Shown here piece after piece: positions 3,547 through 3,750 of a stretch of DNA of 5,904 nucleotides. The notes beneath the pieces were generated by a model. The model made no database searches and was not told the DNA's origin. It saw only the letters and a list, made by a program, of their open reading frames with translations. The stretch is from a virus (lineage: Duplodnaviria; Heunggongvirae; Uroviricota; Caudoviricetes): the IMG/VR virus record IMGVR_UViG_2645728048_000011; one strand, 5' to 3'. Made by a program: the position numbers and the translations under genes. Positions within the stretch are counted from its first letter, which is position 1. Every line of letters starts with the position of its first letter.

Positions 3547-3750
3547 TTACTGGCAGCGTCTGAATTTATTCCCGTACCCGCCGTTATCCTTCGCCAGACC
3601 CGCCAGAACTAACTGAGTCAGTATTAACTGGCACCGGGCTTCGCTTACTCCGGTAGTTCTCGTCATCATGCGTGGCGTTACCCACTTGTCAGCAGGTAAG
3701 AAATGAAGGACTGCTGCGGCGGTTTCTGTCATATCTTGCTGTTTTAGCAT
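3547..3750 (-). CDS. Small hypothetical protein with winged-helix-like pattern (about 67 aa); possible DNA-binding regulator
   Basis: ORF 3547..3774 in the track. The ATG at 3750 is the preferred start because it has an SD (GAAGGGA, 7-nt spacer), whereas the ATG at 3774 has none. Product MLKQQDMTETAAAVLHFLPADKWVTPRMMTRTTGVSEARCQLILTQLVLAGLAKDNGGYGNKFRRCQ shows a helix-turn-helix-wing pattern loosely reminiscent of PapI/FaeA-type regulators. Family assignment is from pattern recall only. Confidence 0.45.
   Translation of the reverse strand: MLKQQDMTETAAAVLHFLPADKWVTPRMMTRTTGVSEARCQLILTQLVLAGLAKDNGGYGNKFRRCQ

Follow-up and report, generated by a model that had tools for sequence, protein, structure and literature searches.

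The 5,904-nucleotide (nt) stretch of DNA analysed here (the window; IMG/VR virus record IMGVR_UViG_2645728048_000011, Caudoviricetes) carries, on its minus strand at 3547–3750 (stop codon included), a gene for a 67-amino-acid protein that is predicted with high confidence to be a winged helix and that lies upstream of a DNA methyltransferase gene of the M.EcoGII family, from which it is separated by a structured leader RNA. We tentatively propose that this winged helix-turn-helix (wHTH) protein may be an accessory nucleic-acid-binding regulator of the methyltransferase cassette, analogous to Com of phage Mu, a proposal that we hold to be a little short of evenly balanced. The preliminary description of this DNA had likened the protein to PapI/FaeA-type regulators and envisaged an epigenetic switch or a controller-like arrangement with the methyltransferase. 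A role as regulator or partner is reasonable given the fold, conservation and co-occurrence of the protein, whereas the PapI-switch and controller forms of that idea do not hold. The fold guess was right and the family guess wrong: the protein belongs to an uncharacterised family with a very common fold.

AlphaFold2 modelling from a 22-sequence alignment (predicted local distance difference test score (pLDDT), 87.8 on average) yielded helices at residues 7–17, 26–33 and 37–49 followed by a β-hairpin (53–55/63–65). This H1–H2–H3–β-hairpin topology, a three-helix bundle with a wing and with wHTH domains as structural neighbours, bears out the winged-helix guess. The residue pattern from which the guess had been made corresponds to the wHTH core, that is, helix 1, T33-G-V-S, the recognition helix R39-C-Q-L-I-L-T-Q-L and a Gly-rich wing. 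Residues R39, C40, Q41, L42, I43, L44, T45, L47 and G51 are invariant among homologues of 48–100% identity, and the recognition helix RCQLILTQL stays constant while helices 1 and 2 and the wing diverge, which points to a conserved target. The protein has a net charge of about +4 (counted from sequence) and two cysteines, of which C40 alone is invariant. Kinship with PapI/FaeA found no support: Pfam FaeA (PF04703) was matched neither by the window protein at E ≤ 0.01 nor by 22 family members at E ≤ 1, and a PDB sequence search returned no PapI chain even at E ≤ 10. Below threshold, the 22 members resembled TrmB (21/22; best E 5e-4), MarR_2 (15/22) and DprA_WH (14/22; best E 1.6e-6), most of them marginally, and the window protein itself falls short of the gathering cut-offs (MarR_2, 14.3 bits versus 27; TrmB, 12.6 versus 25.6); PGAP and JGI label some relatives as TrmB or IscR family regulators. 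The likeness to TrmB, MarR and DprA_WH lies in the fold class and in a profile similarity that is in register with H1–H3, whereas the window protein reaches only 12–14 bits against cut-offs of 25–27 and has no effector or dimerisation domain. The family showed no match to the zinc ribbon of Com (Zn_ribbon_Com, PF10122), for which an open reading frame (ORF) of phage phiARM81ld served as positive control (27.9 bits versus a cut-off of 22.9). Membership of a defence system was rejected, as PADLOC gave no match for the small protein.

The small ORF is a genuine gene, and its coordinates and strand had been given correctly. Two in-frame ATGs precede the end at 3547, one at 3750 (67 residues) and one at 3774 (75 residues). 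The former is the real start: a Shine–Dalgarno-like GAAGGG (3759–3764, minus strand, read from sequence) stands about 8–9 nt before it, and ATG 3774 is put out of frame in the Salmonella homologue by a 1-nt indel while ATG 3750 is conserved. The Shine–Dalgarno-like motif persists as AAAGG or AAGGG in divergent loci, and over the first 11 codons (MLKQQDMTETA) the E. coli and Salmonella subtypes of the protein hardly differ. The 67-residue form, RefSeq WP_000917724.1, is labelled ‘hypothetical protein’, occurs in the same gene arrangement in many E. coli chromosomes and matches PHROGs family phrog_331, of unknown function (E 3.9e-27); a literature search by accession numbers returned nothing on it. 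Homologues numbered 76, down to 48% identity, in a 5.8-billion-protein collection, and a profile search of 1.84 billion representative proteins recovered 89 at E ≤ 0.001, with Escherichia, Salmonella, Erwinia, Plesiomonas, Hafnia, Klebsiella, Morganella, Providencia, Citrobacter, Xenorhabdus and Photorhabdus as named sources. The 80 loci found by a profile search of IMG/VR all encode proteins 99–100% identical to that of the window and added no diversity. Family phrog_331 is thus an uncharacterised, narrow phage family of Enterobacterales. With ratios of nonsynonymous to synonymous substitution (dN/dS) of 0.04–0.45 (only pairs with unsaturated dS), the gene is under purifying selection, and the ORF is both conserved and coding.

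The methyltransferase gene (2344–3396, minus strand) encodes a 350-residue β-class N6-adenine enzyme (Pfam N6_N4_Mtase, E 2.2e-42). Its sequence is 81% identical to M.EcoGII over the full length of 349 amino acids (M.EcoGII sequence from the supplement of PMC11551740) and likewise 81% identical to the enzyme of phage 1720a-02, named a close M.EcoGII relative by Murray et al. (PMC5778455). VTDPPYF at residues 33–39 and FFMGSGST at 309–316 give the β-class order of motifs, and this N-terminal DPPY and C-terminal FxGxG, together with the high full-length identity, place the enzyme in the M.EcoGII family. M.EcoGII methylates adenines whatever their context; its gene is silent in the lysogen, constitutive expression is deleterious, and the cloned enzyme is active without the small wHTH protein (PMC5778455). 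The window enzyme shares the DPPY…FxGxG order, the prophage location and 81% identity with M.EcoGII/M.EcoGI of the E. coli O104:H4 C227-11 prophages; it differs in that activity is known for M.EcoGII itself and the window allele from sequence alone, by which it is probably non-specific for adenine context too. Such an enzyme offers no defined site for differential methylation, so that a site-specific epigenetic switch, as first suggested, is unlikely. The toxicity of M.EcoGII when constitutive and its silence in the lysogen do create a clear need for tight, late-only expression. On gene control, PMC5778455 and PMC11551740 report only silence in the lysogen and toxicity when expression is forced; in a keyword search of both, no passage retrieved referred to an upstream gene or leader, and the word ‘upstream’ is absent from PMC5778455.

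The gap between the two co-oriented genes (3397–3546) is exactly 150 nt, as described earlier, and the 7-bp palindrome reported within it is real (CTGCTTT, 3429–3435; AAAGCAG, 3442–3448). The gap is more than a spacer with a palindrome, being a structured RNA and the most conserved element of the locus; in an alignment of the window, Salmonella, Plesiomonas and Erwinia loci it is more conserved than the wHTH ORF. The leader (3397–3540, minus strand) forms a three-way junction of P0 (3524–3520 with 3453–3449; UGGGC:GCCCA, 100% paired), the 12-bp hairpin P1 (3519–3508 with 3500–3489) and P2 (3487–3478 with 3468–3459), followed by hairpin P3 (3448–3442 with 3435–3429), which is the palindrome. 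About 100 distinct leader variants were collected by an IMG/VR 15-mer scan and from methyltransferase homologues in GTDB genomes, and 61 were aligned after removal of near-duplicates. Compensatory changes are frequent (for example, UUCGCU…AGCGAA to GCCCGU…ACGGGC; in P2, column pair 64/90 is CG in 33, AU in 12 and UA in 11 sequences). Double changes affect 17 of 34 pairs on an unbiased MAFFT alignment and 28 of 34 on a covariance-model alignment, which leans to the model by construction. No shuffle among 500 reached the observed pairing values, slid controls were only 25–47% paired, and the folding z-score is −3.6. Covariance-model matches also lie upstream of the methyltransferase homologues of N15 (46.5 bits; L294, 1362–1506) and Vibrio phage VHML (56.9 bits; L295, 1317–1465), and a further one in Aeromonas phage phiARM81ld (33 bits; L293, 1224–1367); in these three the P0 and P1 sequences are entirely different and the pairing is kept. 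The leader is therefore a conserved structured RNA of about 140 nt across lambdoid, N15-like, Vibrio and Aeromonas phages, with strong covariation.

Rfam 15 (4,227 families) gave no match at E ≤ 1 in the whole window, and identity of the gap as a transfer RNA (tRNA), transfer-messenger RNA or Rfam family was rejected. An outer P3 helix (A5 columns 96–103 with 127–134) was discarded in favour of P0, as only 58% of its cells are paired and several of its pairs never form. Two ORFs overlapping the leader were likewise rejected as genes. For the 35-residue ORF at 3440–3547, the TAATG by which it overlaps the wHTH stop belongs to a terminator-like hairpin and lacks conservation in Plesiomonas and Erwinia, and its frame is interrupted by indels; for the ORF beginning MGGWWV at 3424–3531, indels destroy the frame in Plesiomonas and Erwinia while the nucleotides stay conserved, and the ATG is absent from several Xenorhabdus loci.

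For the window leader, minimum-free-energy folding gives not the junction but an alternative fold (3525–3520 with 3484–3479, 3471–3467 with 3402–3398 and 3465–3461 with 3409–3405, minus strand). Here AUGGGC pairs with GCUCAU of the P2 5′ arm, while GGUCA and AAGCG of the P2 loop and 3′ arm pair with UGAUC and CGCUU, which lie 2–13 nt upstream of the methyltransferase AUG, so that positions −13 to −2 would be sequestered. The helices of this fold are 83–99% paired across the alignment, and in AAGCG:CGCUU both partners have changed at four of the five pairs (GGGC:GCCC in the Plesiomonas clade being one case). In the window the two folds are equal in energy (−55.9 versus −56.4 kcal/mol); 45 of 66 sequences favour the closed one, and the junction clearly wins in the most distant homologues. 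As the methyltransferase start has no obvious Shine–Dalgarno sequence (read from sequence) and the alternative fold occludes the region before the AUG, a translational gate formed by the predicted leader folds is plausible. A Dam site, GATC (3398–3401, minus strand), lies within the nearly invariant UGAUC directly before the start codon, the segment that pairs in the alternative fold with the conserved GGUCA of the P2 loop.

The small gene co-occurs with the methyltransferase family. In a methyltransferase-side census (GTDB, one genome per species; 79 usable loci with 64–93% methyltransferase identity), the wHTH gene was directly upstream of the methyltransferase in 56 loci (71%), in the same order from E. 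coli to Plesiomonas, Hafnia and Xenorhabdus/Photorhabdus, and the leader was upstream of the methyltransferase in 58. Leader and methyltransferase directly follow a terminator without the small gene in 20 loci, and three have neither small gene nor leader; the pairing put forward in the preliminary description is thus a conserved adjacency and not an obligatory one. Order and the spacing of about 150 nt are kept from E. coli to Plesiomonas and Hafnia; in Xenorhabdus/Photorhabdus the wHTH gene is kept, the spacer is about 95 nt, and GUGAAAUGG…P1 hairpin is retained but the junction is not. From the other side, seven wHTH protein clusters picked regardless of downstream content all have, or formerly had, the methyltransferase downstream (intact in four, frameshifted in one, truncated in one and deleted to its 3′ end in one). 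The decayed copies are frameshifted in a widespread Salmonella lineage, truncated in Erwinia and reduced to the last codons in another Salmonella prophage. At a Salmonella enterica locus (L297, 2855–3900), wHTH gene and leader are intact, and a frameshift near codon 60 divides the methyltransferase, in which no gene is called. IMG/VR loci with the wHTH gene and without the methyltransferase (a set biased by its ascertainment with a leader 15-mer) have the first ~22 nt of the leader still in place, followed by other cargo such as NanS-p; on one IMG/VR contig (L083, 7412–7560), wHTH gene and leader (57.5 bits) precede an unrelated 471-residue ORF and not a methyltransferase. The dependency is asymmetric: the small gene is essentially never found apart from the methyltransferase lineage, and methyltransferase plus leader can do without the small gene. 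In phage SfV, the methyltransferase is 98% identical to that of the window and the wHTH protein only 51% (a subtype ending YRRLQQ). Such reassortment of subtypes is easier to reconcile with a common nucleic-acid target than with a protein interface under co-evolution. Sequence comparison suggests recombination breakpoints inside the small gene.

The closest known parallel is the com–mom operon of phage Mu, in which a small protein encoded immediately upstream of mom activates translation of the host-toxic adenine-modifying enzyme Mom; com homologues also stand upstream of non-specific adenine methyltransferases in FluMu, Pnm1 and B3, and a role has been proposed for them with the promiscuous methyltransferases of Mu-like prophages (PMC3299994). 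Both systems place a small gene directly upstream of a late-expressed, toxic, promiscuous adenine-modifying enzyme, and in Mu, too, the leader can fold to occlude the translation start and several layers of control silence the enzyme in the lysogen (PMC3299994). They differ in that Com is a 62-residue, four-cysteine zinc ribbon whereas the window protein is a winged helix with one invariant cysteine; com and mom overlap whereas the window genes are separated by the 150-nt structured leader; the window enzyme is an S-adenosylmethionine-dependent methyltransferase and not Mom; and RNA binding and activation are known for Com only. The Com/methyltransferase pairs (FluMu HI1522.1/Hin1523, Pnm1 Nma1821, Hia5, B3 ORF47/48 and phiARM81ld p55/p56) share with the window a small upstream gene and a relaxed-specificity N6-methyladenine (m6A) methyltransferase, but the small gene is non-homologous (zinc ribbon versus wHTH), and Hin1523 and Hia5, of 281 amino acids and aligned with Dam and M1.DpnII (PMC3299994), differ from the 350-residue β-class enzyme of the window. 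In phiARM81ld, p56 belongs to the same methyltransferase family as the window enzyme (53% identity) and has the leader RNA upstream, and a Com-type zinc-ribbon ORF (L293, 1362–1577; Zn_ribbon_Com, 27.9 bits) precedes and overlaps the start of this homologue. The order is leader, com, methyltransferase there and wHTH gene, leader, methyltransferase in the window. Given the Com zinc ribbon in the small-gene slot of phiARM81ld, the wHTH protein may be taken to fill that regulatory slot without being homologous to Com.

The window corresponds to the part of a lambdoid E. coli prophage that serves late regulation and lysis, with nearly all genes on the minus strand, and the cassette runs in the order pR′-like promoter, tR′, wHTH gene, terminator-like hairpin, leader of about 140 nt, methyltransferase, terminator, lysis genes. 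A consensus scan found the late promoter (TTTACA, 16-nt spacer, TATGCT; 9/12 matches) at 3928–3955 on the minus strand, where its sequence suggests a pR′-like function. Between it and the wHTH gene, the scan placed a tR′-like intrinsic terminator (3873–3891, minus strand; GCCGCTGAGCGGT then TTTTTTT) that is annotated as a terminator in phages Ayreon and SfV; the initial transcribed region and terminator are common to phages P27, 1720a-02 and Stx2a_WGPS2. With this layout, the wHTH gene would be the first transcribed by Q-modified polymerase. In 22 of the 25 phage records listed, which carry different Q genes, similarity stops at query position 597 (window 3896), where the tR′-like terminator has its 5′ edge; in the other three it stops at 3929–3934. 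The terminator is the upstream boundary of a mosaic module. A terminator-like hairpin (3537–3557, minus strand; GCUGCCA-GUAA-UGGCGGU then UUUCCU, from the minimum-free-energy fold) overlaps the wHTH stop; its U-tract is weak and the window scan did not call it a terminator, and in the other wHTH subfamily it is canonical (variants GCCTTCCGCAGTGAAGGCTTTTTTATTT; GCCTTCCGCAGTGAAGGC then TTTTTT). As the leader directly follows tR′ in loci that lack the wHTH gene, it always begins right after a terminator hairpin. The cassette is closed by an intrinsic terminator between methyltransferase and S21-type holin (2313–2337, minus strand; scan: GGCCACGTAGGTGGCC then TTTTTATTTC), where Ayreon, SfV and N15 also have an annotated terminator. 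A promoter scan of this strand from tR′ to the lysis genes found none save one weak 9/12 match inside the wHTH ORF. The conserved 5′ untranslated region (UTR) of the wHTH gene holds two direct repeats, CTGRCTTTTTA (minus-strand sense; 3796–3822), 16 nt apart, the second in the loop of a possible UCUUG/CAAGA hairpin. Identity of the pR′–tR′ transcript with the small RNA StxS was rejected, as this transcript would be only about 45–50 nt long here versus 258 nt for StxS.

We envisage that this small, basic, stand-alone winged-helix protein, encoded by the first gene of the Q-dependent late operon, would be made first once Q-modified polymerase passes tR′. Its target might then be a conserved nucleic-acid element where the leader begins (the GUGAAAUGGGCGGCUGGUGG motif on the 5′ side of P0 and P1), and binding there might sway the leader between the open three-way junction and the alternative fold that pairs 12 nt before the methyltransferase AUG, with the outcome that synthesis of an enzyme that must remain silent in the lysogen would be timed or boosted. 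The 5′ side of P0 and P1 is the candidate target because conservation of the P1 5′ arm is 0.99 in wHTH-positive versus 0.82 in wHTH-negative loci, where only the pairing persists; the other leader segments are equally conserved in sequence in both groups, and the P1 5′ arm remains attached to the wHTH gene where the methyltransferase is lost. Regulation itself, the leader as its target, the choice between RNA and DNA and the direction of the effect are steps that we infer. A more specific version, in which the protein regulates translation in the manner of Com by binding RNA, having taken the place of the zinc-ribbon Com by convergence, and the leader is a new class of cis-regulatory RNA, possibly ligand- or protein-sensing, appears to us rather unlikely.

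Several points weigh against the proposed regulatory role. The wHTH gene is absent from 23 of the 79 methyltransferase loci (29%) and from N15 and VHML; most of these loci and both phages keep the leader, which must then work without the protein. The P1 5′-arm correlation stems from few independent lineages, in which hitch-hiking with the adjacent recombination junction is equally possible. The prediction that wHTH-positive leaders would favour the closed fold more than wHTH-negative ones was not supported, the predicted fold balance showing no difference between the two groups (Mann–Whitney p = 0.23). Winged helices usually bind double-stranded DNA, and the sub-threshold Pfam similarities of the family are to transcription factors. 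In phiARM81ld, the leader lies upstream of com and not between com and the methyltransferase, so that the arrangements are not strictly equivalent. Finally, the activity of cloned M.EcoGII without the wHTH protein means that the latter is not needed for catalysis (PMC5778455).

Other roles were weighed against the same evidence. The sub-threshold matches (TrmB 21/22, MarR_2 15/22, DprA_WH 14/22), the TrmB or IscR labels and the paired repeats in the conserved 5′ UTR would suit a conventional TrmB/MarR-like transcription factor whose site of action is a host gene or the DNA of late-region promoters or terminators, and which does not act post-transcriptionally on the leader. We nevertheless consider this improbable, as a promoter between tR′ and the lysis genes is neither evident nor required, a 67-residue protein without dimerisation or effector domain is a poor fit, the search for conserved palindromes that might serve as operators turned up only the RNA helices, and the tight historical linkage to the methyltransferase would be left unexplained. 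That linkage could instead mean that the protein is a mere passenger of the late operon, joined to the methyltransferase by shared descent within one mosaic module. The two genes are separable in both directions, the module is bounded by terminators and moron-like, and the family has no known function; however, order and spacing persist to 55–65% methyltransferase identity across genera, wHTH-only loci are decay products of the pair and purifying selection on the gene is strong, and the passenger explanation seems to us about as improbable as the transcription factor. Phage lambda Ral stimulates or targets methylation by the host type I enzyme, and DprA is reported to have such an effect too. 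A protein that similarly stimulates, targets or restrains methylation, or that binds hyper-methylated DNA as a reader of the product, would accord with the conserved adjacency, with the weak DprA_WH similarity (14/22 members; best E 1.6e-6) and with the m6A sensing reported for winged helices of DpnI-type domains (PMC11037411, abstract). Such a partnership is still less probable, given the free reassortment of wHTH and methyltransferase subtypes seen in SfV, the full activity of M.EcoGII alone (PMC5778455) and the lack of the wHTH gene in 29% of methyltransferase homologues.

The two forms of regulation named at the outset fit least. A PapI/FaeA-type co-regulator of a methylation-dependent phase switch shares with the window protein only a size of about 70 residues and the generic winged-helix fold; it is contradicted by the family tests, none of which returned FaeA or PapI, and by the context, as PapI belongs to a fimbrial GATC switch with Dam and Lrp whereas the neighbour here is a non-specific, not Dam-like, phage methyltransferase in a lambdoid late operon, with Q on one side and the lysis genes on the other. 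We regard it as extremely improbable. Controller (C) proteins, which are dimers with an Xre-type HTH, act through C-boxes to set the timing of a restriction endonuclease. The window resembles such systems in having a small DNA-binding protein gene upstream of and co-oriented with a modification gene, but its cassette contains no restriction endonuclease gene (downstream are the methyltransferase, holin, endolysin and Rz) and no C-box-like palindrome, and the fold is a winged helix and not an Xre-type HTH, so that the controller idea falls.

Among the remaining features of the window, a DUF968/HNH gene (4935–5888) and antiterminator Q (4552–4932) lie upstream of the cassette on the minus strand, and S21-type holin, lysozyme and Rz genes lie downstream of the methyltransferase on the same strand. 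An Rz1-type lipoprotein ORF of 61 residues (1163–1348, minus strand) sits in the +1 frame within Rz, as expected for a two-component spanin. A plus-strand gene for a lipoprotein-like protein of 148 residues (4021–4467; phrog_3152, function unknown; no Pfam or PADLOC match) is inserted the opposite way between Q and the pR′-like promoter, looks like a moron and ends at a hairpin (4490–4509) that the scan found terminator-like on the minus strand. The 801-bp region around the small ORF matches 1,450 of 5,426 complete E. coli genomes and phages cdtI, mEp460, Ayreon and Stx2c phages. In the Shiga-toxin phages P27, Stx2a_WGPS2 and 1720a-02, the wHTH–methyltransferase pair is flanked by Q on one side and by tRNA and stx genes on the other, so that any effect of the cassette on late transcripts would be relevant to toxin expression.

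Enzymes of the M.EcoGII family have found wide use, for instance in m6A footprinting as methyltransferases without sequence specificity; in temperate phages they probably serve as broad anti-restriction functions. Our analysis suggests that their expression is under layered control, by two or three terminators read through by Q, by the structured leader and, in most lambdoid versions, by a dedicated winged-helix protein, a variation on the known pairing of a promiscuous adenine-modifying enzyme with a small regulator encoded upstream of it. The leader RNA is a more surprising result than the small protein, given its conservation in several groups of phages, its covariation and the biotechnological importance of the enzyme it precedes, and its absence from Rfam makes it a concrete candidate for a new RNA family. 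If the Com-like, RNA-binding version of our proposal were true, the leader would act as the translational gate for M.EcoGII-type enzymes across lambdoid, N15-like, VHML-like and Aeromonas phages, and leader and protein would form an unrecognised protein–RNA switch that keeps toxic methyltransferases silent until late lysis.

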